Assembly: GCA_012034655.1 (NCBI GenBank) | Contig: JAAUOZ010000026.1 | Coordinates: 1 to 42,679 of the forward strand | DNA from: Leptolyngbyaceae cyanobacterium CSU_1_3 | Lineage (GTDB): Bacteria > Cyanobacteriota > Cyanobacteriia > Leptolyngbyales > Leptolyngbyaceae | DNA: 42,679 nt | Direction: 5' to 3' | Translations under genes and position numbers: made by a program | Part shown: one piece after another, positions 6,358-42,631 of the stretch | How the letters are laid out: each line of letters begins with the position of its first letter | How positions within the stretch are numbered: position 1 is the stretch's first letter | Notes under the pieces: model-generated | Database searches by the model: none | What the model was told of the DNA's origin: nothing | What the model saw: the letters and a program-made list of their open reading frames with translations, nothing else

Positions 6358-6361
6358 CAGC

Positions 6362-18451: not shown

Positions 18452-20094
18452 TTATTTGTTGTTTAGCAGTTGTTGAATATCGATGTTTGTAGGTAGGTCG
18501 CCTTTGCGTAGAATTGAGATCCAGCGTTGTTGTTGGGCTTTGCGTTGAGGATTGTCTGTGCTGCTGAGAGAGGCTTGCAGGTCGGTGATTGCTCCGGGTC
18601 GATCGCCCGCGATCGCTCTGGCAATGCCTCGACTGTTTTGGTAATTGGCAAATTCTGGGGTTGGTGAGAAGGCAACAGCTTTTTCGCAGGCATCCATCAC
18701 GTCTGTTGCTTGTTGGTGTAGACTGCCAAACCAGCAGAGTGTATTCCAGGAGCGGGCAGAAACTTTGAGCGTGGGAGCCAGCAATTTGGCTCGATTGAAG
18801 TGGGCGATCGCTGTTTGAATGTCTCCTTTTCTGGCAGATTCTTCGCCTGTGTGGATGAGGGCAGTTGCCGCTAGTTGTTGAGCTTTGAGCCTAGGATCGA
18901 TATTCAAATCAGTACCGAGTTTTTGAGCGGTCTGAAATTTCGCGATCGCACCTTCGATGTTGTCTGCCTGAGCCAGTTTTTCACCTTCGGCAATCAAGCG
19001 TTTCCCTTCTCCGCGATCGGCAAGTTTTTGAGCGGTTGTCTTTGGGTTTAGAGCCAGTTGAGCATTCCATTTCTTTGCCTGTTGAAATTGTACGATCGCA
19101 GCATTCACATCTCCACTTTTTGCCAGTTCTTCTCCGCGTGCAATTAGCATTGAAGAGGCTTGACTCAGAAGGATGGGGGTTTGGCAGACTGTAATCTCTT
19201 CTAGCGTTTTAGGATGATTGAGTAAGTGGTTGTTTAACTGATCGCAAATCCCAGCTATAGAGCGATCGTAATCCAACAACTTTGTTGATTCTTTTTGCTT
19301 TGCATCGGATGTAACTTTCTGCATTTTTTGCACAGTCAAGCGAACTCGATCTTGGGTTTCAACATTAACCCAGGCGGCAGATTGAATTAAACTTGCAGCT
19401 TTTGCAGCAGAGAGCCGTGCATCTAGATTTTGGTCAGATTGCATTAATGCATTCGCAGCAGTATTGAGTGCTTGAATTTCATTAACTTTTGCGGTTCTAT
19501 AGTTTTGTTCTAGGGTTTGGTATTGTCGCAATGCGAAGGCTCCCAATCCTATAGTGATCGCCAAACTACTGACTAAAGTAGCTAAAACGGCATTTGTTAA
19601 GGGACGATTTTTTGATGGCGATCGATTGGGCTGTAATCGACTTCAGACTCTGATATAGTTTGACCTTCAACCTCAGATTGATCACTCGCAATCATGGGAT
19701 GTAAATCAGCTTCAACCATTTGCACCAGCGATCGTGCCACCCCTTGCACACCCGTTTGATCTTGAACAAGCAACCACTGATGTGCTCTCAAAGTTGGGTA
19801 AAGCCGATCTGGGTCAAAATCCTTTCGCACCACGATCGAGATCAAAGGCCGGTGAGCATGAACAGCATGGGCGATTGTGTGACAACAAGTTTGGGAAGCG
19901 ATCGCATCTGAACTAATAACAAACACAACTTTGTCGGCTGTCTCAATGTTCGCTTTGAGCGTTTGCCAATCTAAATGAGGTGAATTATCTTGCCAGTCTA
20001 TGCACACATCCCACTGCTGCTGGCTCAGTGCTGCACCCAACTCCTGAACAAATTCTCTATCTTGAAGCGCGTAGGATACGAAAATCTTGGTCAT
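18452..20094 (-). CDS. TIR-domain / transmembrane / TPR-repeat protein, a single gene after repair of an apparent 1-bp frameshift near 19608..19613
   Basis: ORF 19597..20094 is a TIR-like domain (KIFVSYALQDREFVQEL...KVVFVISSDAIASQ). ORF 18452..19564 (TTG start) is an Sel1/TPR-like repeat region (repeated G.hp.A.p.F..A.p). One extra A in the A6 run CAAAAAATC fuses them through a contiguous hydrophobic helix NRPLTNAVLATLVSSLAITIGLGAFAL. The 32-nt gap between the ORFs has no promoter-like features. Confidence 0.6.
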
Positions 20095-22870: not shown

Positions 22871-22871
22871 T

Positions 22872-24167: not shown

Positions 24168-27100
24168 GTGCTTAAGCTTACCAATTATGAGATCCAGGAA
24201 AAAATTTATGAAGACTACAAAACGATCGTCTATCGAGGATGCCGGAAGCACGATCGTAAGGCAGTCGTCTTCAAAACCCTCAGAGGAAGTTATCCATCTT
24301 CTGAGGAAATTGCTAGGGTTCGGCATGAGTATGAAATTACCAAAAATTTAGATTTAACAGGAATTGTTAAACCTTGCGGTTTAGAAAAATATAATGGCTT
24401 AGCGATCGTGTTTGAAGACTTTGGCGGGAAATCGCTTAATCACTTTCTTGCTAAAAATCGACCCAATCTGAGTACGTTTCTAAACATCGCAATTCAGCTT
24501 GTGAAAACGCTAGGCAAGCTGCATGAAAGAAACATTATCCATAAAGATATTAAACCGCTCAACATCATTTTCAATTCTAACGATGGCCAAGTTAAAATCA
24601 CTGATTTTGCTAACGCTTCGCTGCTTTTGCAAGAAAACCAGGCGGTGATTCATCCCCATCTACTAGAAGGCACTTTAGCCTATATGTCGCCTGAGCAAAC
24701 AGGTCGCATGAATCGCCCGATCGACTATCGGACAGATTTCTATTCTATGGGAGTTACCCTCTATGAAATGCTGACGGGGCAACTCCCATTTTATGCAGAA
24801 GATGCAATAGAGCTAATCCATTACCATTTGGCCAAGCAGCCAATTGCTCCCCATTATCTTAAGTCAGAAATCCCATCAATTTTGTCTGATATTGTCATGA
24901 AGTTGATGGCTAAAACGGTAGAAGATCGATACCAAAGTGCCTATGGAATTCAATATGACTTAGAGATCTGCCTGGGGCAATTGCAAAAAACTGAGCAGAT
25001 CGAACCTTTTGTTTTAGGTCAAAAAGATATCTCAGCAAAATTTCAAATTCCTCAGTGGTTATATGGGCGAGATCGAGAACTTCAAGTACTAGTTGAAGCC
25101 TACGATCGCATTAGCCGAGGCAGCACCGAAATGATTTTGGTTGAAGGGTATTCTGGAGTAGGAAAGTCAACGCTGGTGCGAGAAATCTACAGGTCTCTCA
25201 GCACGTTGCGACACTCCGAAGGAAGGGTGCAGCAGAGTGGATACTTTGTGAGCGGCAAATTCGATCAATTTAAGCACAATGTTCCCTATGCTGGTTTAAT
25301 TCAGGCATTTCAAGAATTGATTCGGCAGATCTTGACTGAAGGCGAAGCCCAAATCAAAGCCTGGAAAGAAAAAATTCTAGCTGCGATCGGCTCCAATGGG
25401 CAGGTGCTCATTGATGTGATTCCTGAAGTTCAACTGATTATCGGAGCACAACCTGCCATTGCTTGCTTGGCTCCTACAGAAACGCAGAATCGATTTAAGC
25501 TAGTTTTTCAGCAATTTCTGAATGCATTGACTGGCAAAGATCATTCACTTGTTCTATTTCTCGACGACCTGCAATGGGCAGACTCAGCCTCGTTGAATTT
25601 GATTCAACTGGTGATGGCTCCCTCAACTCAGGCATCGCTACTCGTGATAGGTGCTTACCGAGACAACGAAGTGAGTCATTCTCATCCATTAACATTAACG
25701 CTTGACGCAATTCGACAACTGGGAACTGAGATCATCACGCTGAGCTTAGCGCCCCTCAGTCTTGCTGATGTCAACCAGCTACTTGCTGATACGTTGCACC
25801 GCGACCCCTTGGCTTGCCAACCGCTCTCTGAGTTGCTGCTAACTAAAACAAGCGGCAATCCTTTTTTCTTAGCTCAAACGTTGACAACGCTTTATCAAGA
25901 GCGGCATTTATCGTTTGATGCTCAGACAGGTTGTTGGCAGTGGAATCTGGCTCAGATTCAAGAATGGGGATCACCGATAATGTGGTTGAGTTGATGGTCA
26001 GCAAGATTCAGAAATTATCTGAACCAACGCAGAATGTTTTAAAGCTTGCCGCCTGTATTGGAAACTGTTTTGATTTAGGGTTCCTATCGATCGTCAATCA
26101 AAAGTCTCTATCTAAGACCGCAGAAGAGTTGTGGGAGGCTTTGCAAGAAGGTTTAATTTTGCCAACCAGTGAGATTTATATGTTTGTTCAAGATCAGCCA
26201 GTGATGGGTGATGAGTTGCAAACCATAACACAAAATGAATCGCTGAAAATTACCTACAAATTTCTCCACGATCGTGTCCAGCAAGCAGCCTATTCATTGA
26301 TTGCTGATGATCAAAAGCAACCGACCCATCTCCAGATTGGGCGGCTACTGTTGCGCCATACGCCAGTGGCCACCAGAGAAGAAGTCATTTTTGATCTGGT
26401 CAGCCACTTTAATATTGGGGCTGATCTGATCGTGCATCAGTCAGAACGATATGCCGTCGCCGAATTAAATTTGGTGACGGGTCGTAGGGCAAAAGCGGCC
26501 ACTGCCTACGAAGTTGCTGTTCGCTGCTTAAGTGCGGGTCTGAAGTTGTTGCCTGAAGAAAGCTGGCAGTTGAACTATCACTTAACGCTGTCGCTGCATC
26601 TAGAAGCGCTGGAAGCGGAATACTTGAACACTCGGTTTGAGCAAGCAGAGAAATTGGCTGCTATTGTGCTGCACAATGCACAAGAACTGTTGGAAAAAGT
26701 CAAAGTGTATGAGATTAAAATTCAGTTTCATATCTCCCAAAATCAGCAATTAGCCGCGATCGAGACTGCTTTAGAAATTCTCAATCTTCTCGGCGAACCG
26801 TTAGTTCAGGAAGCACCCCAAGACATTGTGGTTGAAGACTTGATTCTTCTTCCTAAAATGACAAACCTGTGCAAGATCGCTGCAATGAAGATTTTAACAT
26901 TGCTCATGCCGCCTGCTTTGTTTGCAAGACCCGCTTTGTTGCCCTCGATCGCCTATGCAATGGTCAATCTCAGCGTTGAGTATGGTAACTCAGCCACCAG
27001 TGCTTATGGTTATGCGTTCTATGGGTTAATTTTGTGCAGCGAAAAAGAGATCGAACGCGGCTATAAATATGGCCAGTTAGCAATGCAAGTGCTAGAGCAA

Positions 27101-29641
27101 TTTGACGCTAAAGAACTGCACAGCAAAATTATCAATGTCTTTAATGTCTTCATTCGCCATTGGAAAGAGCCAGTTCGCCATACGATTAAGCCACTTCAGG
27201 AAGGAATTCAAGTTAGCTTTGAAACGGGAGATATTGAGTATGCGTGCTATAACGCAATTTCCTACTGCACCTATCGCTTTTTTAGCGGAGAAACCCTAGA
27301 AACGGTTCAGCAACAGCAGCATATTTATATCGATTTGTTGCTCAAGCTAAAACAGGAGTATTCAACCTATTTTCTGCAAATTGGGAAGCAACTGGTCTGC
27401 AATCTCATGGGTCAAGCGTATGATAAGTTTCGCTTGATCGGAGAAGATTTTAACGAAGAAGAGGCGATTCCTGCTTTGATGGAGTCTAATAATTTTACGC
27501 TACTTTTCTTTGTTTATCTTGCCAAAACGATTTTGCTATATTTCTTGCAAGACTATCAGCAAGCGATCGTTTATGCCAGACTCGCTGAACAGTATGCAGA
27601 CAGCATGATTGGCTTTATGCACGTACCCGAACTAAATTTCTACACGTCACTCACCTTATTGGCACTCTGCACAACAGCTACCACAGATGAGAAGACGCAA
27701 TATTTAGACCAGGTGCAACGCAATCAAGTGCAAATGCAAGAATGGGCAACTCATGCGCCTGCAAATTATCAACATAAGTTTGATTTAGTCGAAGCCGAAA
27801 GAGCGAGAATTGGTGGACAAATCCTTGAGGCAATGGAATTGTACGATCGAGCAATTTTGGGCGCACAAACAGAGCACTATCTACAAGAAACTGCATTGGC
27901 ATATGAGCGGGCTTCAGAGTTATATGAAGGGTGTGGTCGGGCACAAATCGCTCAGTTTTATCTTGAAGAAGCTTGCCGTGTCTACGATTCTTGGGGGGCT
28001 ACTGCCAAGATTCAAGCCTTAGAGGCAAAGCATTCACAACTCAAGCTAATTGCCCGTAACCTTCCGATGAATGCTGGGGAGGTTCTTCCTACAACAAGTT
28101 CAGTTGTGAGCGATCACCTGGTGAGCCTAGACTTGACCACGATCGTCAAAGCGTCTCAAGCGATCGCAGGTGAGATTGTTTTGAGCAAACTGCTGGATAA
28201 ATTACTTAAAATTGTCATGGAGAATGCAGGTGCTCAGTCTAGTTGTCTAATTTTGCAAAAGAACGGACAACTCGTAGTCGAGGCAACCACTTCAATTGAG
28301 CAAGGCAAAGTTAGTTTACATCCTTCACTACCGATCGAGACTAGCCAGACGTTACCCGTGTCGTTGCTCTACTATGTTGCTAGAACACAAGAAAATCTTG
28401 TTTTAGCCAATGCAATGTGCGAAGAGAGGTTTATTTCAGATCCATACCTGGTTAACCACCGGCCAAAATCTGTTTTATGTGCGCCTATTGTCAATCAAGG
28501 TAAGCTCATTGGTCTGCTGTATTTAGAGAATAATCTCATGATCGGTGCTTTCAACCCAAATCGTCTAGAAGTGCTGAAAATTCTCTCGGCTCAGGCAGCA
28601 ATCTCGATCGAAAATGCTCTCCTCTATGCCAACTTGGCGACAGCAACAGATAGCCTAAAGAAAGCGAATAGTCAATTAGAAGACTATAGCCGTACCTTAC
28701 AGCAGAAAGTTGCCGAACGAACGCTAGAGTTGCAAGAAAAGAATCAAAAACTAAATCAACAAACCACCCAAACTGAATTAGCATTGCACGAGCTAAAGAG
28801 AACTCAGATACAACTCATTCAATCTGAGAAGATGTCAAGCTTGGGGCAGCTAATAGCAGGCATTGCCCACGAGATCAATAACCCCATTAACTTTGTCTAT
28901 GGCAACATTGAATATGTCAATGAGTATATGCAAGAAGTTCTTCATCTACTGCGGCTATATCAGCAGCACTGTTCGCAGCCAATTTTCGCGATACAAGAGA
29001 AACTAGAGGAGATTGACCTCAATTTTCTGCTAACCGATTTCCCAAAAACCCTTGCCTCAATGAAAGTTGGAGCAGAGAGAATTCGGGAGATTGTCAAGAG
29101 CCTACGAAATTTCTCACGTCTAGGTGAGTCAGAGAGCAAAGAGGTCAATATTCACGAAGGCATCAATAGCACTTTGCTGATACTAGAGAATCGCCTGAAA
29201 GAGAAGTTGAACTGTCCTGGTATTCAGGTTGTTAAAGAATATGGTGAACTGCCCATAGTCGATTGTTATGCGGGGCAACTAAACCAAGTGTTTATGAATT
29301 TGATCAGCAATGCGATCGATGCCTTGGGCGAGCGCGATGTCTCAGAAATTCAAGCTCAACCCAGTACGATTTACATTTCTACAGAGGTATTCAACGATCG
29401 TCGTTGGGTCAGAATTTCCATTCGAGATAATGGCAATGGAATATCTGAAGAGTTGCAACATCGTTTGTTTGATCCATTTTTCACCACAAAACCCGTTGGC
29501 TATGGCACAGGGCTAGGGTTATCTATCAGCTACCAGATTGTGGTTGACCAACACAAAGGTCAGTTGAAATGTTTATCAAAACCTGGGCAGGGCGCAGAGT
29601 TTGTGATCGAGATTCCGGTTACACAAGCCTTGTCCACCTAG
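24168..29641 (+). CDS. Giant multidomain signalling protein: Ser/Thr protein kinase, AAA/NTPase, TPR-like helical region, GAF, HisKA and HATPase_c. Apparent 1-bp frameshift near 25962..25966.
   Basis: AAGGAG lies 7 nt before GTG 24168. Kinase motifs are HKDIKPLN, DFA and SPEQ. P-loop is GYSGVGKST. ORF 25931..29641 continues directly (QIQEMGITDNVVEL if one A is added in CAAGAATGGGG). Later features are a GAF (about 28100..28620), the H-box AHEINNPINF and G-boxes DNGNGI and GTGLGL. Confidence 0.75.
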
Positions 29642-29697: not shown

Positions 29698-32600
29698 CTA
29701 CGATCGAGGCGCTTCTAAGAAACCGTTTTGAATAAAGTAGGAGAAGTAAACCTGTAGCAATTCATCGTTGACGGGTGGGCAAACAATGCCTGTATCTGTC
29801 AAAGCGGCACTAGTATTTTGGCAATCTAGATAGGGGTGATATTGGTATAGCTCCGGTAAAGTTAGCTCTTGATACATCTTTTCTACCTGCATTGGCACTA
29901 GTGGATACAAAGCATTCTCTTGAGAGTATCGTGTATGCTGTAGCAGGCGATCTTTCCACTGATCGTAGGGTAGTTTTTCTACAAAGTAACCGTAATCATT
30001 GATCTGTTGAAAGAATTCCAGAAACTTCTGGGGATGAGGATTTACAACGTGGAAGATTTGTCCTAGTGATTGTTCTTGACGAGAGAGGTGAACGATCGCT
30101 TTACTAGCGTAGTCGATCGGCACAAAGTATTCATGCTTGTTCGGTAGGTCAGGGTAGCATCCGAGTTGAATGCAGCCTTTGATCAATCGAGATGCATAAT
30201 CTTTGGTGTTGGTAATTCCCGTTTGGCTATGTCCTAAGATTAGTCCGGGTCGGAAAATGGTCACGGGTATGCCTCTTGAGCGTGCCGTATGCATCAGTTT
30301 TTCTGCCACCCACTTACTTTGTGAGTATCCCAGAAACAGAATATCTTCACTCGGATCAAGGTCATCGTCTTCATACAAAGCAGACATGCGATTGAAGTAG
30401 CCAGTCGCCCCAAATACAGAATCTGTTGAAATATAATGTACTGTCTTGGTTTGGCTCTGACACGCCAGTTTGAGGATTTCTTGAGTACCTAAAACATTGG
30501 CTGCTTTCATCAAAGAATAGGGCTTGACGAAGTTAACCAATGCACCGTTGTGGTAGATCGTATCAATTTGATCAGCCAACAGGTTGAACTGTTCTGGTGA
30601 TACTCCTAACAATGGTTGAGACAGATCTCCAGGAATAGGAACGATACGATCGCGATAACGCTCATCCCACAATGAATATTGTTCTAACGTTTGTTGTAGT
30701 CTAACTGCACCATCACTGGAGCTAGAACAACGAACCAGACAATAAAGGGTTGCCTGAGTCTGCTGAAGTAACTCATGCACCAAGAAGGCTCCCAAGAACC
30801 CAGTGGCTCCCGTGAGGAAGACATTTTGAGGATTGCTAACGGGAACGATCGCCGGCCCACTTGGGTAAATATCTGATGCCAATACTGCATCGCCTTTGAG
30901 GTCAAGCGTTTTCGTTAAAGCAGCAACACTGTCTACGCCATCTCGCTGTAAGGCTTCTAAGGTTTGGGCAAGACCTTCGATCGTCGGATACTCAAACAGC
31001 AAGCGCACAGGTAACTCGACCTGAAACTCTTCTCTGATGTAAGAAATCAGGTGTGCTGCCAGTAATGAATTGCCACCCAAATAGAAGAAATCATCATGAA
31101 TGCCCAAGTCTTTAATACCCAGCACGGCAGACCAGAAGTGAGCAACCTGCTGTTCCATCAGAGTTCGAGGTGCGATGAAGGTTGATTCTAACTCAGGTCG
31201 AGCATCGGGGAGGGGCAAGGCACGATGATCGACTTTGCCGTTGATGGTGAGTGGCAATGTTTCCAACACAACGAACGCTGAAGGAATCATATATTCCGGT
31301 AATTTCTGCTGAAGGAATCGACGCAGATCGGAAGTGGCTAATGTTCCCTTGGAGGTCAGGTATGCTACCAGTCGCTTATCAGTTGGGATATCTTCTCGAA
31401 CAATGACCACACATTCACTCACATTGGAATAATGCTGAATTGCGGACTCCACATCGCCTAGTTCGATCCGAAAACCGCGAATTTTCACCTGATTGTCGAT
31501 GCGTCCCAAATATTCAATATCGCCATTGGCAAGCCGACGCGCCAGATCTCCTGATTTGTAGAGGCGTGTCTTGGGGCAAAAGGGATTTTCGATAAACCGT
31601 TCAGCCGTTAGCTCTGGGCGATTTAGATAGCCTCTTGCTAACCCTGCGCCACCAATATGCATTTCTCCGGGTACACCGATCGGGACAAGTTGCAGATTTT
31701 GATCCAGCAAATAGACCTGAAGATCAGGAATAGGTTGCCCGATCGCGCTGCCTGCATTGAGGTCTGCGATCGTAATCGGTCGATAGGTCACATGGACAGT
31801 CGTTTCGGTGATGCCATACATATTCACTAGCTGAGGGGTTCGATCTCCGTGGCGATCAAACCAAGATTTTAAGCTTTGCAGTTCCAACGCTTCGCCCCCA
31901 AAGATCACAAAGCGCAATGCTAGATCATCAGAAACGCCAGATAGTTCTTCGGTTCGCATCAGTTGTCGAAAGGCAGAAGGCGTTTGGTTCAGTACTGTGA
32001 CTTTTTCGCTGCATAACAACTTGTAGAAGGAATCTGGCGATCGACCCACACAATGCGGCACAATTACCAACCGTCCGCCATGCAACAATGCACCCCACAG
32101 TTCCCACACCGAGAAATCAAAAGCATAAGAGTGGAAGAGTGTCCAGACATCGTGCTTGTTGAATTGGAACCAAGCCTGAGTTGAGCTAAACAGCCGCATC
32201 ACATTGGAGTGATTGATCAGCACTCCTTTGGGTTTGCCTGTTGAGCCAGAGGTGTAGATCACGTAGGCGAGCGTGTCAGCATTGAGAATACGCCCAGGAG
32301 ATGTAGTAGGAAGTGCGGCGATCGTATCCCCATCTGTATCTAAACAAACGGCTTGAGCGGATGTTTTGGGCAACCGTTGCTGCAAATCAGATTGCGTAAC
32401 TACTAAGGCTGCATTCATATCTTCGACAATGCCCGCCAAGCGTTCTGGTGGCGATGCCGGATCGAGGGGAACATATGCACCGCCTGCCTTCAGAATTCCC
32501 AGAATGGCGACAACCAAATTGAGAGAGCGATCGACACATAGCCCTACTAAACTATCCGGTTTGACCCCCAAGTTTTGCAGGTGATGGGCCAACTGATTTG

Positions 32601-34152
32601 CCCGTTGATCTAACTCTCGATAGGTGAGTTGCTGATCTTGACATACGATCGCGATCGCATCGGGAGTTTGTTCTGCCTGCGCTTCAAACTGTTGATGTAA
32701 ACAGGCAGGGAGGGGGGCAGCCTGGAGATCATGCCCGCCTAGCAGTGCTTGTTGTTCTGTGAGGGTGAGCAGTGGCAAATGTGAAATAGACTGATCCGGG
32801 TTGGCAATGATTCCGGTCAGCACAGTGTGAAAGTGCCCCATGAGGCGCTCGATCGTATCTGCATCAAACAAATCGCTATTGTATTCAACACAGCCCATCA
32901 CTCCGTTTGGCACTTCTGCTAATTGCAGCAGCAGATCAAACTTGGCAGTGCCATTGTGGATGGCTTGAAAATCTAACTGCATATCAAGGGACGATTCTAC
33001 CTCGACAGATGCCCCTGGCAAAAACTCAAGCATGACCTGAAAGAAAGGCTGCTGACCAGCTTGGCGCTCTGGGTGCAATCTTTCTACCAGCGTTTGAAAG
33101 GGCACATCTTGATGGGCATAGGCGGCGATCGTCACCTCTCGTTCTCGCTGCAACAACTCCCGAAAACTCGGAGAGCCAGATAGATCAGTTCGCAGGACGA
33201 TCGTATTAACAAAGCAGCCGATTAGGGGTTCAAGTTCCGATCGCGTCCGCCCTGCTGTCACGGTGGCGACAGGAATATCATTTTGGGCTGTGTAGCGATG
33301 CAATAGGGTTTTGAAGGCTGCCATCAAGGTCATAAACAGGGTCACACCTTCTTGGCGAGAGACTGCCTTGAGTTGATCCGTCACGTCTTGTGACAGGCTG
33401 ACACTATGCCGTGCGCCGCGCAAGCTTCTGACTGCTGGATGAGGTCGATCGGTGGGCAGTTGCAGAACGGGGACATGTTCAAGTTGTTGTTTCCAGTACT
33501 CAATTTGAGGTTCGAGCACATCACTTTCTAGCCATTGCCGTTGCCAATCTGCAAAGTCAGCATATTGAATGGTGAGATCGGCCAGGGGTGAAGGTTTGCC
33601 AGCACAAAAGGCTTCATAGAGTGCTGCCAATTCTTTGAGAAAGACATTAAACAGAGAAACCCCGTCATAAATAATGTGGTGCAGGGTGAGGTAGAGGCGG
33701 TGATGGGTGGCATCTAGGTGTACCAGTGTTGCCCGTAGCAAAGGAGCTTGAGCCAGATCAAAGGGGCGCTCACCTTGAGCAGTCGCAAGTCGCAATGCTT
33801 CGCTTTCTCGATCGTGGGGTGGCAACGGTTGAAGGTTGACCACAGAGAGTTTGAAGGAGGACGGTGGGTGAATGATTTGCAGGGGTTCACCGTCGATCGC
33901 TACAAACGTGGTGCGCCAAACGGCATGGCGACGAAGAATTTCGTTGAAGCTGTGCTCTAGTGCTGCGATGTCGAGAGAACCTGTGAGGTGCAATGTTACT
34001 GTGTCGTTGTAATAAGGACTGTTGGGTTCTAGTTGGGCCAGTAGCCACATTTGCTGTTGAGCCAGAGATGTAGGAAAAACCAAAACCTCTTCTTCTATAG
34101 CAGAAGAGATATTTTTAGCAATGTCTAAGGGCTTGGGAAGATGCTGAACCAT
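29698..34152 (-). CDS. Non-ribosomal peptide synthetase, terminal module C-A-T-R (condensation, adenylation, PCP, NAD(P)H-dependent thioester reductase)
   Basis: C domain HHIIYDG. A-domain core motifs LTYRELDQRAN, YTSGSTGKPKG, FDFSVWE, NMYGITE, GELHIGGAGLARGY, YKSGDL and GRIDNQVKIRGFRIE. PCP LGGNSL. The R domain has GATGFLG and the YSQSK (YxxxK) catalytic pair. 1,484 aa with no competing frame. Confidence 0.9.
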   Translation of the reverse strand: MVQHLPKPLDIAKNISSAIEEEVLVFPTSLAQQQMWLLAQLEPNSPYYNDTVTLHLTGSLDIAALEHSFNEILRRHAVWRTTFVAIDGEPLQIIHPPSSFKLSVVNLQPLPPHDRESEALRLATAQGERPFDLAQAPLLRATLVHLDATHHRLYLTLHHIIYDGVSLFNVFLKELAALYEAFCAGKPSPLADLTIQYADFADWQRQWLESDVLEPQIEYWKQQLEHVPVLQLPTDRPHPAVRSLRGARHSVSLSQDVTDQLKAVSRQEGVTLFMTLMAAFKTLLHRYTAQNDIPVATVTAGRTRSELEPLIGCFVNTIVLRTDLSGSPSFRELLQREREVTIAAYAHQDVPFQTLVERLHPERQAGQQPFFQVMLEFLPGASVEVESSLDMQLDFQAIHNGTAKFDLLLQLAEVPNGVMGCVEYNSDLFDADTIERLMGHFHTVLTGIIANPDQSISHLPLLTLTEQQALLGGHDLQAAPLPACLHQQFEAQAEQTPDAIAIVCQDQQLTYRELDQRANQLAHHLQNLGVKPDSLVGLCVDRSLNLVVAILGILKAGGAYVPLDPASPPERLAGIVEDMNAALVVTQSDLQQRLPKTSAQAVCLDTDGDTIAALPTTSPGRILNADTLAYVIYTSGSTGKPKGVLINHSNVMRLFSSTQAWFQFNKHDVWTLFHSYAFDFSVWELWGALLHGGRLVIVPHCVGRSPDSFYKLLCSEKVTVLNQTPSAFRQLMRTEELSGVSDDLALRFVIFGGEALELQSLKSWFDRHGDRTPQLVNMYGITETTVHVTYRPITIADLNAGSAIGQPIPDLQVYLLDQNLQLVPIGVPGEMHIGGAGLARGYLNRPELTAERFIENPFCPKTRLYKSGDLARRLANGDIEYLGRIDNQVKIRGFRIELGDVESAIQHYSNVSECVVIVREDIPTDKRLVAYLTSKGTLATSDLRRFLQQKLPEYMIPSAFVVLETLPLTINGKVDHRALPLPDARPELESTFIAPRTLMEQQVAHFWSAVLGIKDLGIHDDFFYLGGNSLLAAHLISYIREEFQVELPVRLLFEYPTIEGLAQTLEALQRDGVDSVAALTKTLDLKGDAVLASDIYPSGPAIVPVSNPQNVFLTGATGFLGAFLVHELLQQTQATLYCLVRCSSSSDGAVRLQQTLEQYSLWDERYRDRIVPIPGDLSQPLLGVSPEQFNLLADQIDTIYHNGALVNFVKPYSLMKAANVLGTQEILKLACQSQTKTVHYISTDSVFGATGYFNRMSALYEDDDLDPSEDILFLGYSQSKWVAEKLMHTARSRGIPVTIFRPGLILGHSQTGITNTKDYASRLIKGCIQLGCYPDLPNKHEYFVPIDYASKAIVHLSRQEQSLGQIFHVVNPHPQKFLEFFQQINDYGYFVEKLPYDQWKDRLLQHTRYSQENALYPLVPMQVEKMYQELTLPELYQYHPYLDCQNTSAALTDTGIVCPPVNDELLQVYFSYFIQNGFLEAPRS

Positions 34153-34479
34153 TGGATTATTTTCCTATGTGTGAAGAAGAAGTCAAAACGGGTTAGCAGG
34201 CTCGATCGCTCTAACGCCAAAGGGGACAAAGGGGCCATTTGTAGGTAGCCTGAGATCTTGCACCAGTCGCAACACCTATCTTGCAATCCATGCCTGCAAT
34301 TCATGCTGGGCTAATCGTTAAAGTTCGTTGAAACGGGCTACAATCTTCAGCAGATTAAGCTTCTAACCCATTTCATATTTGGGCGTTGCATGTATAGAGG
34401 GATGAAATGGAATGGAATGGATTGTTGAGAAAGATGCAAGATCTCAGTCAAGCTTTAGCCAAACTTTAGGCAGGCTTTT

Positions 34480-37400
34480 CTACAATTCTTCTGCCGTCTT
34501 AACGGACTTATGAATGGGCAGAGTGTTGTATGTTTGCGTGTTCTTTTCAGGAAGTGTTGCGATGTCAGCAGCGTGTTCTTTTCTAGATCTATCCGATTCT
34601 TCTGGCAATGTAAATACCATTGCAGAAGTTTTTTCTGCGAACTCTTTTTTAGATTTACCTGCCAACTTCGCTTGTATTGAAGATAGCGTCATCCGTCGTG
34701 CTTCGCGCACTACAGAAACTAAAGCAGGCATCTGAGGTTGGGTGCTCATCTGGTATTGCTCGATCGCTTCTGCAAATTTAGCCACGGTTGGAGTTGAAAA
34801 CAACGTATGTAGAGGCAATTGCACCTCAAAGACTTCATTGACTCTGGCCATCACTTGAGTTGCTAAGAGTGAGTGTCCTCCTAGCTCTAAAAACGGATCG
34901 TGAATGCCCACCCGATCGACTCCTAGTAGAGCAGACCAAATCGCAGCAATCTTCTCCTGAGCAGGAGTTTGAGGCGCGATATATTCAACCTTGAAGTCCG
35001 ATCGATTCTCTTCTGGAATCGGTAAAGAACGGCGATCTATTTTTCCATTTGGCGTAAGCGGCAATTGCTCTAGAAAGACAAACGCTGAAGGAACCATATA
35101 TTCTGGTAGCTGACGGCTCAAGAACTGACGCAATTCGCTTAACGGGCTGGGTGTAGTCGTGACCAAATAGGCAACTAGGCGCTTGTTGCCAGGGACATCT
35201 TCTCGCGCTATGACCACACAGTCTTGTACTGTGGAATGTTGGCGCAGAGACGATTCGATTTCGCCTAACTCAATTCGGAAGCCTCGCAGTTTGACCTGGT
35301 GATCAATGCGTCCCAAATATTCAATGCTACCATCGGGCAAATAGCGGGCTAAGTCACCTGTTTTATAGAGCCGATCGCTATCCCCAAAAGGATGGTCAAT
35401 AAATCGTTCCGCCGTCAGATCGGGGCGATTGAGATAGCCACGGGCCAAGCCAATACCGCCGATGTGCAATTCTCCAGCGACCCCGATCGGAACGGGATGA
35501 AGTTGAGCATCAAGCAGATGAATTTGCATATTTGCGATCGCACGGCCAATCGGAACAATGCGACGATTGGCCGTGCGCTGACATGCCCAAAATGTCACAT
35601 CAACCGCCGCTTCGGTCGGGCCATAGAGATTGTGCAATTCAGCGTTGAGACGATCGAAGCAGCGTTCTTGCAATTCAAAGGGTAAAGCTTCTCCGCTACA
35701 AATCACTCGTTTGAGGCACTGGCAACCCTCTAGATTGGGTTCTTGCAAAAATGCCTGGAGCATCGACGGGACAAAGTGCAGCGTTGTAATCTGCTGCTCT
35801 GCGATCAACTGAGCAAGATAGGCACTATCTTTATGTCCTTCAGGTCGGGCAACAACCAGCCGCGCCCCCGTCATCAACGTCCAAAAGAACTCCCAGACAG
35901 AGACATCAAACCCAAAGGGCGTTTTTTGCAGAACGCGATCGCAATCCGACAATTGATAAGCATCTTGCATCCACAACAATCGATTGCAGATGCCCTTGTG
36001 GGTATTCATTGCTCCTTTAGGTTTGCCCGTCGAACCGGAGGTATAAATCACATAGGCAAGATGATCAGGGGTCACAGGGCTGAGCGGAGTTTCTACACTA
36101 GATTGAGCAATCGTCTGCCAGTCTGTATCAAGGCAAATCACCTGTGCCTGAGGTGGCAACTGCGGTAATAGCGACGATTGAGTCAGCAACACTGGAACTT
36201 GAGCATCTGCCATCATAAACGCCAACCGCTCTGGTGGGTAGCTCGGATCAAGGGGAACATATGCACCTCCTGCTTTGAGGATTCCGAGAAGCCCAATCAC
36301 CATTTCTAGCGATCGCTCTATACAGATTCCCACCAAACCATCGGGAGTGATTCCTAGGCTTTGTAAGTGGTTGGCTAATTGATTCGCCCGTTGATTTAAT
36401 TCTTGATAGGTTAGTTGCTCTTCGCAAGCTTGCACAGCAATTGCATCCGGTGTTCTCAAGGCTTGAGCTTCAATCAACTGATGCAGGCAAATCTCTGGAT
36501 ATTCCACATGGGTATTGTTCCAGGTGGCAAGTTGCTGTTGTTCTGCTGTGGTGAGTAATGGCAACTCAGTAAGACGGTGTTCTGGGTGAGCTACAATTCC
36601 TTCTAGTAAGGTTTGAAAATGCTCAGCCAGACGAGCGATCGTATCTGCATCAAATAAGTCAGTGCTATATTCAATGCGCCCGATCAGTCCCTCTGGTCGT
36701 TCATCCAGTTCGAGATACAAATCACATTCTGTTGTTCCGGTGTCTACGTCTTGTTGGCTCAACTGCCACCGAGAATCCGTTTCTACCCAGGGGGGAGCCA
36801 GCACAAACAATACCTGAAACCACGATCGCGGCTGCGAAGTCTTCTGGGTTAATCGTAATGCCTCTACTACCTTTTGAAACGGCGTATCTTGATGGGCATA
36901 GGCATCTAACGTCACCGATCGAACACGTCGCAATAGCTCTCGAAAGCTTGGTGCTCCGGATAAATCAGTCCGTATGATCAGCGTGTTGATAAAACATCCG
37001 ATCAAAGGCTCAATGTCCGATCGATTACGCCCTGCCGTCACCGTAGCAACGGGAATATCATCCTGTGCGGTATAGCGATGCAACAGGGTTTTGAAGGCTG
37101 ACATCAACGTGACATACAATGTCACCCCTTCTTGGCGAGACAGTGCTTTGAGTTGCTCTGTCAATTCTTTGGATAAGCTCAAGCAATGCTGAGATCCTTT
37201 GAGACTTGCGATCGCGGGGTAAGGTCGATCGGTCGGCAATTGCAGTGTCGGGAGGCTTGCGAGTTGTTTTGTCCAATAATCGAGTTGAGGTTGCAGTGTC
37301 TCAGACCGCAACTCTTGCTGCTGCCACGCTGCAAAATCAGCATATTGAATGGTGAGATCGGCCAGGGGTGAAGGCCGCCCAGCACAAAACGCATCATAGA

Positions 37401-39879
37401 GTGCTGATAGTTCTTTGAGAAACACACTATAAAGAGATACACCATCATAGATGATGTGATGCAAGGTGAGATAGAGGCGATGGTCTGTTTCGCTGAGTTG
37501 AACGAGCGTAGCTCGCAACAAGGGGGTCTGAGTCAGATCAAAGGGGCGTTGAGCTTGGGCCGTTGCTAGTTGTAGGGCAGTTTGTGCTTGCTGATCTGGA
37601 AGGTATGTTCTTAGATCTACAACGGACAATGGGAAGGGGAAATGCGGCTGAATGACCTGGTGCGGGATGCCTGCGATCGCTACAAATTTTGTGCGCCAAA
37701 TCCCATGACGGCGAATGATTTCATTCAAGCTTTGCTCTAGTGCAGCAACATTGAGCGAACCTGTAAATTGCAGTGTCACCGCGTCGTTGTAGCAAGGCGT
37801 ATCAGGCTCTAGTTGCGCCAGCAGCCACATTTGTTGTTGCGAAAAGGAAAGCGGTAGCGGCTGATCTAGAGCGACGGGCTGAATGGGTTGAGAACCTTTC
37901 CCTCCATCGCTTGTTGCGATCGCGTGGGCAAATTCTGCGATCGTCGAAGCTGCCAACACAGTCTGCAACGGCACTTGCACCTGGAGAACCTCACAGACTC
38001 GCGCAATCACCTGAGTTGCCAGGAGGGAATGTCCTCCCAGTTCCAAGAACGAGTCGTGAATGCCAATGCCTTCAATGCCCAATACGGTTGTCCAAATTGC
38101 GGCAATTTGCTGCTCAAGTTGAGTGCGAGGTGCAACATAGGGAGCCGACACTTCAGGGCGACTCTCATTGGGAATGGGGAGTGCTCTACGATCGATTTTC
38201 CCATTCGGTGTAAGCGGCAATTGTTCCAGCAATACAAATGCTGAAGGAAGCATATATTCTGGCAACGACTGGCTCAAAAATTGACGACATTCTCCCACGG
38301 TTAAGGCGGTTTCTGACGACATGGCCAAATATGCAACTAGCCGCTTATTACCGGGTATGTCTTCGCGAATCATCACCACACATTCACGAATGTCTGGGTG
38401 TTGACGCAAAGCAGATTCGATTTCGCCAAGCTCAATCCGAAAGCCGCGCAGCTTCACTTGATGGTCGAGCCGTCCCAAATACTCGATCGCGCCATTGGGC
38501 AAACACCGCACCAGGTCTCCCGTTTTATACAGACGAGTTCCCAGATGCCAGGGGTTAGAGATAAACCGTTCAGCCGTTAGTTCAGGGCGATTGAGATATT
38601 CTCTCGCTAGCCCAACTCCACCGATATAGAGTTCTCCGGCGACTCCCGCAGCAACAGGCTGAAGGTGAGAATCTAAGACATAACATTCTGTATTAGAAAG
38701 AGGACGGCCGATCGGAAGGGTGGTGGCATCTTCTGGAACCGTTTCAATCAAATGCCAGGTGGCAAAGGTTGTACTTTCGGTTGGCCCATACACATGCAGT
38801 AATCGCGCTGGTGGCTTATGTCGCAGCACTTCGCGCACCCATTTTGGATCAACCGCTTCCCCCCCAAACAATACCTGCCGAAGCGAGTGAAACGCAGACG
38901 GAACTTCACGGGCGACTTGATTGAAGAGAGCAGTCGTCAGAAATAGGGTGGTGATGTTTTGCGCTTGCAGAAAGTTTGCAAATGTTCTAGGAGTGAGGGC
39001 AATGTCTTGGCTAACGATAACCAATCGCGCTCCATTAACCAATGCACCCCAAATCTCAAATGTTGCTGCATCAAAAGAACAATTAGATACTTGAGCGACA
39101 ACATCTGTAGGGTTGAGATCGATGTAGTTTGTATCCATTACTAATCGATGCACAGCTTTATGTTCTACAGCAACCCCTTTGGGCGTGCCTGTAGAACCAG
39201 AGGTATAAATGACATAGATTAAGTCATCTGCATTGCCAGAAGTGCTAGTGTTATTGACTAGATTTTCGGCTGACTGCTGTGTAACAGTTGACCAATCTGT
39301 ATCTAAACACAGCACTTGAGCCTTGTGTTCAGGAAGCTTTGACAACAGCGCCGTCTGAGTCAGCAGCACAGACACTTGAGCATCTGCCACCATAAACGCC
39401 AACCGCTCTGTTGGGTAGCTCGGATCAAGCGGAACATAGGCTCCCCCTGCCTTGAGAATTCCGAGAAGTCCAATCACCATGTCTAGCGATCGCTCTACAC
39501 AGATCCCGACAAATTGATTGGGGGCTACTCCCAGCGATCGTAGGTGACTCGCTAATTGATTGGCGCGTTGATTCAAATGGTGATAGGTCAATTGCTGATC
39601 TGCAAACTCCACCGCGATCGCGTCTGGTGTTTTTTGGGCTTGAGCTTCAAACAACCGATGAATCGCCGTACCGTGAAACTCAGCGATCGGGAATTCACGG
39701 ATCGAAAATTCACTGATCGGGAATTCACTGATCGGGAACTCACCGATCGGGAACTCACCGATCGGGAATTCACGGAGTTGCTTTCTGAGCTTCTCATCTC
39801 TAGCAGCTTCATACTTGAGGTTTGGGTATGCATTCCAAAGACGCATTTCTACAGAGCCTTCAGGGATTCGTTTCTCCAT
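34480..39879 (-). CDS. Non-ribosomal peptide synthetase with two modules, A-T-C-A-T, an N-terminal repeat extension and a ~100-aa C-terminal tail that may be a docking region
   Basis: Two full A domains (YTSGSTGTPKG then YTSGSTGKPKG, with the NTHKGICNRLLW motif in the second), two PCPs (LGGHSL x2), one C domain (HHIIYDG) and no E or TE domain. 1,799 aa. The start codon is uncertain (ATG at 39879 or the internal MRLW). Confidence 0.9.
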   Translation of the reverse strand: MEKRIPEGSVEMRLWNAYPNLKYEAARDEKLRKQLREFPIGEFPIGEFPISEFPISEFSIREFPIAEFHGTAIHRLFEAQAQKTPDAIAVEFADQQLTYHHLNQRANQLASHLRSLGVAPNQFVGICVERSLDMVIGLLGILKAGGAYVPLDPSYPTERLAFMVADAQVSVLLTQTALLSKLPEHKAQVLCLDTDWSTVTQQSAENLVNNTSTSGNADDLIYVIYTSGSTGTPKGVAVEHKAVHRLVMDTNYIDLNPTDVVAQVSNCSFDAATFEIWGALVNGARLVIVSQDIALTPRTFANFLQAQNITTLFLTTALFNQVAREVPSAFHSLRQVLFGGEAVDPKWVREVLRHKPPARLLHVYGPTESTTFATWHLIETVPEDATTLPIGRPLSNTECYVLDSHLQPVAAGVAGELYIGGVGLAREYLNRPELTAERFISNPWHLGTRLYKTGDLVRCLPNGAIEYLGRLDHQVKLRGFRIELGEIESALRQHPDIRECVVMIREDIPGNKRLVAYLAMSSETALTVGECRQFLSQSLPEYMLPSAFVLLEQLPLTPNGKIDRRALPIPNESRPEVSAPYVAPRTQLEQQIAAIWTTVLGIEGIGIHDSFLELGGHSLLATQVIARVCEVLQVQVPLQTVLAASTIAEFAHAIATSDGGKGSQPIQPVALDQPLPLSFSQQQMWLLAQLEPDTPCYNDAVTLQFTGSLNVAALEQSLNEIIRRHGIWRTKFVAIAGIPHQVIQPHFPFPLSVVDLRTYLPDQQAQTALQLATAQAQRPFDLTQTPLLRATLVQLSETDHRLYLTLHHIIYDGVSLYSVFLKELSALYDAFCAGRPSPLADLTIQYADFAAWQQQELRSETLQPQLDYWTKQLASLPTLQLPTDRPYPAIASLKGSQHCLSLSKELTEQLKALSRQEGVTLYVTLMSAFKTLLHRYTAQDDIPVATVTAGRNRSDIEPLIGCFINTLIIRTDLSGAPSFRELLRRVRSVTLDAYAHQDTPFQKVVEALRLTQKTSQPRSWFQVLFVLAPPWVETDSRWQLSQQDVDTGTTECDLYLELDERPEGLIGRIEYSTDLFDADTIARLAEHFQTLLEGIVAHPEHRLTELPLLTTAEQQQLATWNNTHVEYPEICLHQLIEAQALRTPDAIAVQACEEQLTYQELNQRANQLANHLQSLGITPDGLVGICIERSLEMVIGLLGILKAGGAYVPLDPSYPPERLAFMMADAQVPVLLTQSSLLPQLPPQAQVICLDTDWQTIAQSSVETPLSPVTPDHLAYVIYTSGSTGKPKGAMNTHKGICNRLLWMQDAYQLSDCDRVLQKTPFGFDVSVWEFFWTLMTGARLVVARPEGHKDSAYLAQLIAEQQITTLHFVPSMLQAFLQEPNLEGCQCLKRVICSGEALPFELQERCFDRLNAELHNLYGPTEAAVDVTFWACQRTANRRIVPIGRAIANMQIHLLDAQLHPVPIGVAGELHIGGIGLARGYLNRPDLTAERFIDHPFGDSDRLYKTGDLARYLPDGSIEYLGRIDHQVKLRGFRIELGEIESSLRQHSTVQDCVVIAREDVPGNKRLVAYLVTTTPSPLSELRQFLSRQLPEYMVPSAFVFLEQLPLTPNGKIDRRSLPIPEENRSDFKVEYIAPQTPAQEKIAAIWSALLGVDRVGIHDPFLELGGHSLLATQVMARVNEVFEVQLPLHTLFSTPTVAKFAEAIEQYQMSTQPQMPALVSVVREARRMTLSSIQAKLAGKSKKEFAEKTSAMVFTLPEESDRSRKEHAADIATLPEKNTQTYNTLPIHKSVKTAEEL
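39685..39774 (-). repeat. In-frame 15-bp tandem repeat x6 (GATCGGGAATTCAC[G/T]) encoding (EFPIG/EFPIS)n at the NRPS N-terminus
   Basis: Directly visible. Translation on the minus strand gives REFPIGEFPIGEFPISEFPISEFSIREFPIAEF, immediately before the first adenylation domain. Confidence 0.85.
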
Positions 39880-40365: not shown

Positions 40366-40459
40366 TGCCCTCACCCCAACCCTCTCCCAAGTTGGGAGAG
40401 GGAGCAGGAGTCCGGTTCCTCTTCTCCCATTTTGGGAGAAGGGGTTAGGGGATGAGGGT
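40366..40459. repeat. Compound G/C-rich palindromic element of the same family as 18342..18394, probably a terminator for the downstream minus-strand kinase gene
   Basis: Perfect inner hairpin CCCTCTCCC-AAGTT-GGGAGAGGG, a second hairpin CCTCTTCTCCC-ATTTT-GGGAGAAGGGG, and flanking GCCCTCACCCC..GGGGATGAGGGTC arms. It lies 20 nt beyond the stop of gene 40481..42417. Confidence 0.5.
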
Positions 40460-40480
40460 CTTAAGTTTAATTCCACCTAC

Positions 40481-42417
40481 CTACTTAGGGGTTTCATCGC
40501 TTGATTTGATTCGCTGCAAAGGAATCTGAATCATAAACTCAGCGCCTTGTCCGATCTTCGATCGACACAGTAACTTTCCTTTGTGCCTTTCCACAACAAT
40601 TTGATAGCTGATAGATAAACCCAACCCAGTGCCTTTGCCCACAGATTTGGTGGTAAAGAAGGGGTCAAATAGCTTAGAGCAAACGGCCTCACTCATGCCC
40701 ATGCCATTATCAGCAATGCGAATCGTTACCCACTGATTGGTAGTGACTTCAGTTTGGACGTGAATTGTATTGGGGTTGGTTTTGATTTCCTCAAAAGTGC
40801 GCTGTTGGTTATATTCTTCAAAAGCGTCAATAGCGTTACTCAAGATGTTCATGAACACCTGATTTAGAGGCCCCGCATAGCACTCGACTAAGGGCAATTG
40901 CCCATATTCTTTAATCACCTGAATCTCTGGACGTTCTGCGTTTGCTTTCAGACGATTATTTAAAATGACGATCGTGCTATCAATACCCTCATGGAGATCG
41001 ACCGATTTAACTTCGGCTTCATCTAGTCGAGAAAAGTTCCGCAGAGACATCACAATTTCACGAATGCGATCGTGCCCAAATACATCGACTGGACAATCTT
41101 CGCGAGATCTTCTACGAGAAAATCAACATCAATTCTGTCAATTTCGGTTTGAAGCTCGGCGGATGGGTTGGGGCAGTCTTGTTGATAAAGCTGTAGGAGT
41201 CTGAGCAAATCTTCAGCATATTCTTTAACATAGCTGAGGTTGCCATGAATAAAGTTAATGGGGTTATTAATTTCGTGGGCAACTCCTGCCACCATTTGCC
41301 CAATGCTAGACATTTTCTCGCTCTGAATCAGACTCAATTGAGTCTGCTCTAGCTCTTGCAGCATTTGCTCAAGCCAGCTATTTTTCTCACTGATTTCTTG
41401 CGTTCTAGCTTCAACTTTCTTCTCTAAGGTATGACTATAGACCTCTAGTTTTGCATTCGCATCGATTTGTTCGTGTAGCAAATCTTTGACTTTTCTAATC
41501 AGTTCATTTAAGACGATAGTTAATTCACCCACTTCATCTTGGCTAGTAATAGGCGCTTGTAGATCAAAATTTTTGGTGTGGATGACTTGCTGAGCAATAT
41601 CAGCAGTTCTTTGAATAGGACGGGCGATCGCTCGACTAGCATAGAGGGAGAAGATAAGGGCGATCGTCATCGAAAATAATAGGCTAGTCGAAATGATTTG
41701 GATTCGCAATTCTATAGCAGCTTCTATAGCTTTCTCTGCTTCCTCGTACTCGTCGGTCGCTACGTCCAGCAGCTTATTAACCTGCTCTGAAAATTGATCA
41801 AACTCAACAACTAGTTCATCATTATTCGTCGCTATCAACTGTTCTTGAGCCGCTTTTCTCTTTTCTGCGGGCAGGCTGTTCGGGTTGAGTTGCTGAAACT
41901 GTTTTTCTACTTTCTGTAAACGTAGATCTAAGCTCTCATAGGTTTGGGATAACTTGTCGAGAACCGCTTGCTCAATGTCTGACTCTTCAATGTCGGGGTT
42001 TATATACCCCTGGGTAGATTTAAACTCTGCCCATATCCGACGGGTTGAAGCCAAATCCTCTAAAAAATGACCATACTCTATCTGCCAGAGTGAGGGCTTT
42101 ATCATCGACAGCACGAGTTGTTTTTGGTGCAGATGGGTTTCTAGCACGTCACTCTCCAAGCGGTAGACCAGTCCGATCTCCTGAACGGCATCTTCTGCTG
42201 CTCTGTAGGCCGCTTTTTGGTAATAATCTGCAATCAGAAAGCCCGTAGTAGTTCCTACAACAGCCACTCCGATCGCCAATCCATAGCCCAGGCTAATTTT
42301 TTGACCCACCCTCAAGCGGCTAAACCTTTGCCCCCAACCCTTTGCAAAAGGCAGTGAGTTTTGAGAAGAACTCTTGACGGCTGGGCTGTTTGGCTCCGGT
42401 GCTTGATTCGTTGACAT
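40481..42417 (-). CDS. Membrane sensor histidine kinase (TM, extracytoplasmic helical sensor, TM, HAMP-like, HisKA, HATPase_c). Apparent 1-bp frameshift near 41066..41076.
   Basis: Start chosen at MSTNQAPEP. The extended 5' part of ORF 41050..42573 lacks coding character. TM helices are ISLGYGLAIGVAVVGTTTGFLIA and IISTSLLFSMTIALIFSLY. The H-box is AHEINNPINFIHGN. The C-terminal ORF 40481..41053 (DNGMGM, GKGTGLGL) continues in another frame. One added G gives ...GTDRIREIVMSLRNFSRL, which parallels the paralogous module at about 28800..29641. Confidence 0.7.
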
Positions 42418-42631
42418 TGTTTGAGGTAAGGGTAGGGGAGCTTCTAAAGATTGAGAGGCTAGAGAAGAAAGGTATAGAAAATCGAGAGACTTTTGAGCTT
42501 GATCATAAAAGACGTGGCACGAGGGATGCTCCCCAATAAGAGTGCCCCTAATACTTTCAACAATCTCTCTCAAATTCTAATTTAGGCAGACGGCTCTTGG
42601 TTTTCTGGCTCTTTAGCCAATTGCAGCACTT

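Follow-up and report, generated by a model that had tools for sequence, protein, structure and literature searches.

A two-gene, three-module nonribosomal peptide synthetase locus with a terminal thioester reductase in a Leptolyngbyaceae cyanobacterium

Contig JAAUOZ010000026.1 of Leptolyngbyaceae cyanobacterium CSU_1_3 (assembly GCA_012034655.1), analysed here from position 1 to 42,679 and called the window, carries two adjacent nonribosomal peptide synthetase (NRPS) genes, NRPS1 and NRPS2. Together they probably form a functional, self-contained assembly line of three modules on two proteins, from which a tripeptide would be released by reduction. The locus is a type I modular NRPS by its domain content, with adenylation (A), carrier (T) and condensation (C) domains, and it ends in a thioester reductase (R) domain.

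Domain architecture and the terminal reductase

In Pfam, NRPS1 contains AMP-binding (E 2e-189), PP-binding and AMP-binding_C domains, each twice, and one Condensation domain (residues 675-1117, E 4e-105). NRPS2 is composed of a Condensation domain (27-471, E 4e-108), AMP-binding (489-843), AMP-binding_C (901-973), PP-binding (1002-1065) and NAD_binding_4 (PF07993; 1113-1353, E 5.5e-73). Chance is excluded by these E-values. Over the three A domains, AMP-binding reaches E 2e-189 and 4e-96 and TIGR01733 scores above its cut-off. Their core motifs A3 (SGSTGxPK), A8 (GRxDxQVKxRGxRIE) and A10 (NGKxD) are intact in all three cases, and both C domains have the active site HHIIYDG, of the HHxxxDG type. 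A phosphopantetheine-attachment core (GGxS) follows each A domain, as LGGHSL at 615 and 1667 in NRPS1 and as LGGNSL at 1026 in NRPS2. No frameshift or stop interrupts the 9.85 kb that encode the two synthetases.

Epimerase (E), methyltransferase (MT), thioesterase (TE) and heterocyclisation (Cy) domains were not reported by Pfam or NCBIfam in either protein, and the stretches between the annotated domains are too short for E, MT, TE or Cy. The DxxxxD motif of Cy domains was not found in C2 or C3, which both read HHIIYDG, so the heterocyclising oxazoline siderophore type does not apply. The open reading frame (ORF) coordinates and the domain annotation agree exactly with an earlier, preliminary description of this DNA, which had proposed three collinear minus-strand modules (A-T-C-A-T, then C-A-T-R) lacking epimerase, methyltransferase and thioesterase.

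The end of NRPS2 matches the NCBIfam model TIGR01746 ("thioester reductase domain") with 369.8 bits, against a cut-off of 213.35, over residues 1110-1479, starting ~45 residues past T3. The Rossmann motif TGxxGxxG is present as TGATGFLG (1114-1121), conserved in the ortholog from Phormidesmis sp. 146-33 (contig L079) and in MxaA, the closest R domain of known structure. The YxxxK motif of short-chain dehydrogenases/reductases (SDR) is represented by YSQSK (1276-1280), aligned with YAQSK of MxaA, and the upstream segment HYISTDS is aligned with HYVSTVS. As far as can be read from its sequence, the domain lacks nothing that an active thioester reductase requires, and the SDR-type R domain recognised in the preliminary description (GATGFLG, YxxxK) is borne out. 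A degenerate NAD-binding motif, which would have spoken against a functional reductase, is not seen; TGATGFLG is intact and aligned with the NADPH-bound MxaA. The same alignment, in which the Tyr-x3-Lys motif is also intact, makes it hardly credible that NRPS2 ends in a non-redox R* domain, with release of the substrate by a Dieckmann or other condensation. R* domains do share the fold and the Pfam family of R domains. However, the thioester has no beta-keto or polyketide synthase (PKS)-derived partner here.

Table 1. Features of the NRPS locus and split genes of the window (positions in the window; residues numbered in the encoded protein; dN/dS, ratio of nonsynonymous to synonymous substitution rates; TRF, Tandem Repeats Finder)
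Feature	Position	Strand	Details and evidence
NRPS1 gene, 1799 aa	34480..39879	-	Modules 1 and 2, A1-T1-C2-A2-T2 and C-terminal tail; ORF list, Pfam, NCBIfam
N-terminal leader, residues 1-76	39652..39879	-	Non-conserved; no Pfam match; dN/dS 0.45
Tandem repeat, 15 bp x 6.3, in-frame	39680..39773	-	Encodes (EFPIx)6; TRF, translation, alignment
A1 adenylation, residues 77-565	38185..39651	-	Code DAFFLGVTFK, predicted Ile (Val minor); Pfam, GrsA alignment
T1 carrier, about residues 590-655	37915..38112	-	LGGHSL core, Ser618; Pfam PP-binding, motif
C2 condensation, residues 675-1117	36529..37857	-	HHIIYDG; LCL-like N-terminal motif LPLSFSQQQMWLL; Pfam E 4e-105
A2 adenylation, residues 1135-1616	35032..36477	-	Code DVWHISLVDK, predicted L-Ser; Pfam, alignment
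T2 carrier, residues 1642-1706	34762..34956	-	LGGHSL; Pfam, motif
C-terminal tail, 93 aa after T2	34483..34761	-	No Pfam match; dN/dS 0.34
Spacer, 327 bp	34153..34479	-	Sequence; blastn against L079
NRPS2 gene, 1484 aa	29698..34152	-	Module 3 and release, C3-A3-T3-R; ORF list, Pfam, NCBIfam
C3 condensation, residues 27-471	32740..34074	-	HHIIYDG; preceded by acidic N-terminus EEEVLVFP; Pfam E 4e-108
A3 adenylation, residues 489-976	31225..32688	-	Code DFWNIGMVHK, predicted Thr; Pfam, alignment
T3 carrier, residues 1002-1065	30958..31149	-	LGGNSL; Pfam, motif
R, terminal thioester reductase, residues 1110-1479	29716..30825	-	TGATGFLG, YSQSK, upstream ST; TIGR01746, NAD_binding_4
Split genes	1017-1795; 2198-5762; 6278-8324; 24150-29641; 40481-42573		Adjacent/overlapping ORFs

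Predicted peptide and mode of release

The Stachelhaus positions were read by alignment to GrsA-PheA, for which the reference sequence used returned the canonical code DAWTIAAICK, validating the numbering. For A1, DAFFLGVTFK was obtained from the multiple alignment and from the ungapped local context (NITTLFLTTA against EITVITLPPT); the variant DAFTLGVTFK, given by pairwise MAFFT alignment with GrsA, was rejected due to a shift of position 278. All three codes are exactly identical to published ones, for Ile (Val minor), L-Ser and Thr, respectively. The A1 code is found in Oci A5 and A7 of Planktothrix, with Ile/Val products (PMC2533009), and in the Ile-activating domains of the aeruginosin, suomilide and pseudospumigin lines (PMC13122637). 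The A2 code is that of the Ser module (module 1) of the variovoracin synthetase RlpB, whose product contains L-Ser (PMC12964202), and the A3 code is that of OciA-A2, a Thr-incorporating domain (PMC2533009). All three codes recur unchanged in the Phormidesmis ortholog.

The N-terminal regions of the C domains contain LSFSQQQMWLL and TSLAQQQMWLL, and the carrier cores which precede them read GGHSL. Such N-terminal motifs are LCL-like. Together with the lack of an E domain, these features suggest that all residues are in the L-configuration, and a free N-terminal amine is predicted since the non-conserved leader of NRPS1 holds neither a starter C nor any other domain. Because the three codes are identical to codes linked to products, the peptide H-Ile(Val)-Ser-Thr is confidently predicted as the product, reductively released. 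The reductive release of a tripeptide, already proposed in the preliminary description, is also the natural reading of the domain order and of the functional-looking R domain.

In the proposed mechanism, module 1 (A1-T1), which has no starter C domain, would load L-Ile, and sometimes Val, onto T1. C2 would then couple this residue to L-Ser, loaded on T2 by A2. The dipeptidyl-T2 would pass from NRPS1 to NRPS2, probably via the basic tail of the former and the acidic N-terminus of the latter. The first part of this tail bears a basic motif, MPALVSVVREARRMTLSSIQAKLA, conserved in L079 and found twice, in variant form (QLPTLTSAVQQ(M/A)R...RRMKLSALREEL), in a distant copy of the cassette on metagenome contig L081. 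NRPS2 and its relatives begin with an acidic stretch (EEEVLVFP, DEEVLVFP), and tail and head can reasonably be regarded as a candidate docking pair. C3 would couple the dipeptide to L-Thr on T3, and the SDR-type R domain would cleave the Ile-Ser-Thr-S-T3 thioester with NAD(P)H, so that the peptide leaves with its N-terminal amine free and its C-terminus reduced. In this scheme we infer the actual substrates, the L-configuration, the docking, the number of reduction steps and the biological role.

The R domain was compared with characterised R domains available as PDB chains. Its nearest solved relative, by far, is MxaA-R (PDB 4U7W/4W4T; E 1.6e-100, ~45% identity over ~400 residues). Carboxylic acid reductases and Mtb-R are found at about E 1e-31, and AusA-R, an aldehyde producer, is far more distant (E 1.7e-13). 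The domain is also ~50% identical to stand-alone T-TR proteins of Nostocales, one of them annotated "HglB". We take these proteins to be fatty-alcohol formers. MxaA-R is cited as an alcohol-releasing R domain (PMC8024701). These comparisons weakly favour H-Ile-Ser-threoninol (C13H27N3O5, [M+H]+ 306.202), which appears slightly more likely than the aldehyde H-Ile-Ser-threoninal ([M+H]+ 304.187). We know of no accepted sequence signature for the number of hydride transfers, which separate aldehyde from alcohol.

It is possible, if doubtful, that reduction by the R domain ends with the first two electrons. Ile-Ser-threoninal would then be released and could be a covalent protease or proteasome inhibitor, or could proceed to a hemiacetal, an imine or a dimer. 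Ser or Thr at the C-terminus is unusual among known protease-inhibitor aldehydes. True aldehyde formers, such as NcpB, do occur among the R-terminated NRPSs of cyanobacteria (PMC7551626), and relatives of the A-T-C-A-T-R type (R domains 50-58% identical; L083, L085, L086, L090) are common in metagenomes, an architecture that classically yields dipeptide aldehydes and pyrazinones (PMC7586950; PMC8024701). However, the closest characterised R domain, that of MxaA, makes an alcohol, and AusA-R is distant. A head-to-tail imine of the tripeptide would require a 9-membered ring, which seems chemically unattractive; nostocyclopeptide, the precedent for such an imine, has seven residues (PMC7551626). 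The emphasis that the preliminary description had put on a reactive aldehyde, a cyclic imine or a protease inhibitor is not favoured, as the closest characterised relative forms the alcohol.

Several points weigh against a functional line that makes Ile-Ser-threoninol. Substrate prediction from specificity codes can fail, and, to our knowledge, closeness to MxaA does not reliably separate two-electron from four-electron reductases. The R-domain comparison covered PDB chains, and a cyanobacterial R domain, that of NcpB, forms an aldehyde (PMC7551626). A phosphopantetheinyl transferase (PPTase) gene is absent from the window. The ~240 bp of lineage-specific spacer DNA may uncouple the expression of the two NRPS genes, and the many frameshifted neighbours may reflect decay of this part of the genome or an error-prone assembly.

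Known systems and relatives

A characterised cluster matching the locus was not found in a full-text literature search, and the NCBIfam equivalogs MxcG, AusA, EntF and SolG are all far below their cut-offs for NRPS1 and NRPS2. A near-identity to a described cluster, which would have made the locus a known one, was thus not encountered. Judged by its domains, the locus works like other R-terminated NRPSs, namely AusA, MxcG, RlpB, NcpB and the terminus of MxaA, and is an ortholog of none of them.

MxaA, of the myxalamid pathway of Stigmatella aurantiaca, has TGATGFLG, HY(I/V)ST and Y-x-Q-S-K-W-V-A-E-K-L in common with the R domain, and MxaA-R is an NADPH-dependent thioester reductase with alcohol release (PMC8024701). 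In contrast to the pure three-module NRPS ending in Thr described here, MxaA terminates a hybrid PKS-NRPS line and acts on a polyene acyl-alanine. As the identity is only 45%, the number of reduction steps is not simply transferable. The variovoracin synthetase RlpB (C-A-T-C-A-T-R, lipo-Ser-leucinol) is likewise a small R-terminated NRPS, with the identical Ser code DVWHISLVDK and a product ending in an amino alcohol (PMC12964202). RlpB is proteobacterial and has two modules, a lipid-attaching starter C domain and linked glycosyltransferase genes, whereas the window locus is trimodular and lacks both a starter C and linked genes for tailoring.

AusA (aureusimine) and the A-T-C-A-T-R synthetases of dipeptide aldehydes and pyrazinones resemble the locus by the A-T start without a starter C and by the reductive release. 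AusA has two modules and its aldehyde closes to a 6-membered ring, which a tripeptide cannot do. The window locus has three modules on two proteins, to both of which the AusA equivalog NF047350 aligns, with 1297 and 818 bits against a cut-off of 2500. The myxochelin synthetase MxcG (C-A-T-R) aligns end to end with NRPS2 (residues 26-1481 against 5-1441 of 1442). Its equivalog NF038078 scores 813.8 bits against a cut-off of 2300, so the layout is common to both, not orthology. MxcG activates Lys and condenses aryl acids, and nothing of that kind is found in the locus. The nostocyclopeptide synthetase NcpA/NcpB is a cyanobacterial NRPS divided over two proteins. Its terminal R domain sets free a linear peptide aldehyde whose N-terminus is unblocked and whose sequence includes an Ile-Ser pair (PMC7551626). 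Its seven modules, E domain, methylproline (MePro) supply genes, transporter, protease gene and macrocyclic imine have no counterpart here.

The best homolog of NRPS2, 85% identical, belongs to Phormidesmis sp. 146-33 (Leptolyngbyaceae), in which NRPS1 has an ortholog of 84% identity. Contig L079 is syntenic, with the same two NRPS genes and the same downstream kinase at ~81% DNA identity, so that the window can be assigned to a filamentous cyanobacterium related to this strain. At a synonymous divergence (dS) of about 0.8-0.9, dN/dS is 0.11 for NRPS1 and 0.09 for NRPS2, and the catalytic domains range from 0.03 to 0.11 (R, 0.07). Relaxed values were only obtained for the N-terminal leader and the C-terminal tail of NRPS1 (Table 1). 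Both genes are clearly under purifying selection, as estimated from this alignment. A decaying or silent relic, as the frameshifted surroundings might suggest, is very unlikely. Such a reading finds support in the at least five split neighbouring genes, one with a defined 1-bp deletion, in the extra spacer DNA and in the expanded leader repeat, but it does not agree with the uninterrupted NRPS reading frames, the intact catalytic motifs and a dN/dS of about 0.1.

The distant copy of the cassette lies at 10001-19868 of L081 and consists of an A-T-C-A-T protein of 1739 aa followed by a C-A-T-R protein of 1507 aa, with 58-60% identity. Contig L082 carries identical proteins. The neighbours on these contigs (an IS66 fragment, UvrD, a phycobilisome protein and UbiA) are unrelated to those in the window; the IS66-type transposase fragment is located directly upstream of the L081 cassette. 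The L081 codes read Ile-Thr-Ser. The A domains of the two lines cluster by specificity (window A2 with L081 A3, 76%; window A3 with L081 A2, 72%), whereas the T domains, and more weakly the C domains, cluster by position, which indicates that the Ser/Thr order was swapped by A-domain exchange. The two C domains of L081 share 87% identity, those of the window only 63%, and this suggests a recent gene conversion inside the L081 cassette.

A T-R fragment with 71% identity is found beside Uma2 and ValRS genes in contig L080. The remaining relatives found all terminate di-modular or longer lines. Among them, L083, L085, L086 and L090 are metagenome contigs with di-modular A-T-C-A-T-R genes, their T-R ends being 50-58% identical to that of the window; they are probably loci of the dipeptide aldehyde/pyrazinone type. 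The T-R scan of metagenome contigs gave no closer relative above 56% identity, its matches ending di-modular or longer lines, and the scan of genome contigs returned only non-orthologous NRPSs of at most 55% identity.

No accessory gene is common to the different contexts. The preliminary description had left open whether the locus is minimal or has its partners elsewhere. As the cassette recurs without common neighbours, a minimal locus is better supported than partners next door. It is nevertheless conceivable, though unlikely, that the two genes are the core of a larger pathway, in which an unlinked N-acyltransferase, glycosyltransferase, transaminase or exporter acts on the reduced tripeptide and the true product is larger. 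The window has no transporter or tailoring gene, and in other systems the aldehydes or alcohols released by R domains are processed further, as in variovoracin, a glycolipopeptide that incorporates the reduced dipeptide (PMC12964202). Against this stand the wholly different neighbours among which the cassette recurs, with no accessory gene in common, and the missing starter C domain for N-acylation.

The cassette, apparently self-contained, may, tentatively, represent a small and undescribed cyanobacterial family of "hydrophobic-hydroxy-hydroxy" tripeptides, each with its amine free and its C-terminus reduced (Ile-Ser-Thr-ol/al in the window, Ile-Thr-Ser-ol/al in L081), under strong purifying selection and mobile as a self-sufficient two-gene unit. 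If so, it would provide a new compound class, for example a peptide headed by a 2-amino-1,3-diol, or a Thr/Ser-aldehyde warhead that hits a specific biological target or serves in signalling. With 10.2 kb and two genes, the locus is a compact, intact target suited to heterologous expression, and its simple predicted product has a mass that is easily searched. Confirmation of the product would add one more small peptide alcohol or aldehyde to the known cyanobacterial repertoire, and would offer a clean natural example of A-domain specificity exchange (Ser, Thr) in an otherwise position-conserved assembly line. The locus itself is an uncharacterised trimodular reductive-release NRPS of a standard kind, and its logic holds nothing unexpected. 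Comparable orphan NRPS loci number thousands, and no long-standing open question is touched.

Leader, spacer and genomic surroundings

The leader of NRPS1 varies in length among the relatives; it has 76 residues here, 37 in L079 and about 8 in L081. Its 15-bp repeat has a CGATCG core in every copy and is translated as (EFPIG/S/R/A)6. The alignment places no such repeat in L079 or L081, and it looks like a lineage-specific expansion within the coding region.

Of the intergenic spacer, about 240 bp (34222..34464) lack a blastn counterpart in L079, where the spacer measures 129 bp. The last ~55 bp are conserved with L079, including an AGGAAA ribosome-binding site, and contain a promoter-like TTGACT-N16-GAAAAT (34186..34159), a match to the consensus alone. 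A scan for promoters and terminators was uninformative, the promoter counts being no higher than in shuffled sequences. The insert holds short repeats, namely (ATGGA)4, an 11-bp unit and a 13-bp unit. A repeated mobile element was rejected, as there is no second copy in the window, and an MbtH gene in the spacer was also rejected, the 59-aa ORF at 34125..34304 having no Pfam match. Likewise, an upstream regulatory RNA was dismissed, since no Rfam family reaches its gathering score in the window.

The surroundings of the locus are dominated by sensor kinases, as the preliminary description had remarked. The convergent gene just downstream encodes a Ser/Thr-kinase-AAA_16-GAF-histidine-kinase protein and the upstream gene a HAMP-HisKA/HATPase kinase, while the rest of the window encodes further sensor kinases, response regulators, a K+ channel and Band-7, TIR and TPR proteins. 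An FAD monooxygenase, an OHCU decarboxylase and an alpha/beta hydrolase are also encoded. Neither MbtH, nor a transporter, nor a plausible tailoring gene was found in the 42,679 nucleotides; the domain annotation of the ORFs corroborates the earlier statement that these, and a PPTase, are missing from the window.

At least five window genes, four of them for signalling, are split into adjacent or overlapping ORFs (Table 1). The split genes comprise YlmH_RBD and S4; a partial GAF-PAS-HisKA and HATPase-REC-REC; CHASE4, HAMP-HisKA and HATPase; Pkinase-AAA_16 and GAF-histidine kinase (HK); and HAMP-HisKA and HATPase. The Pkinase/HK pair corresponds to one gene of 1829 aa in Phormidesmis sp. 146-33, and a 1-bp deletion is located near 25965 in the window (CAAGAA-TGGGG against CAAGAAGTGGGG). 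The split genes may be either real pseudogenes or indel errors of the assembly.

Next to each other lie a TIR-domain protein (19597..20094) and a TPR protein (18452..19564), and the gene at 24150-25994 combines a STAND-like AAA_16 NTPase with a Ser/Thr kinase. In their domains these genes resemble NTPases of defence or signalling systems. The FAD-dependent monooxygenase (FAD_binding_3), followed by the OHCU decarboxylase (21078-23372), looks like a urate-degradation pair and not like NRPS tailoring. A palindromic G/C-rich element, CCTCTTCTCCCA...TGGGAGAAGGGG with a second GGGAGAGGGTTGGGGTGAGGG arm, is located at 40370-40470, just downstream of a kinase gene, and the window ends with an exact tandem repeat of 18 bp x 2.5, AAAACCCCCCAGTCTAAC, at 42633-42677.

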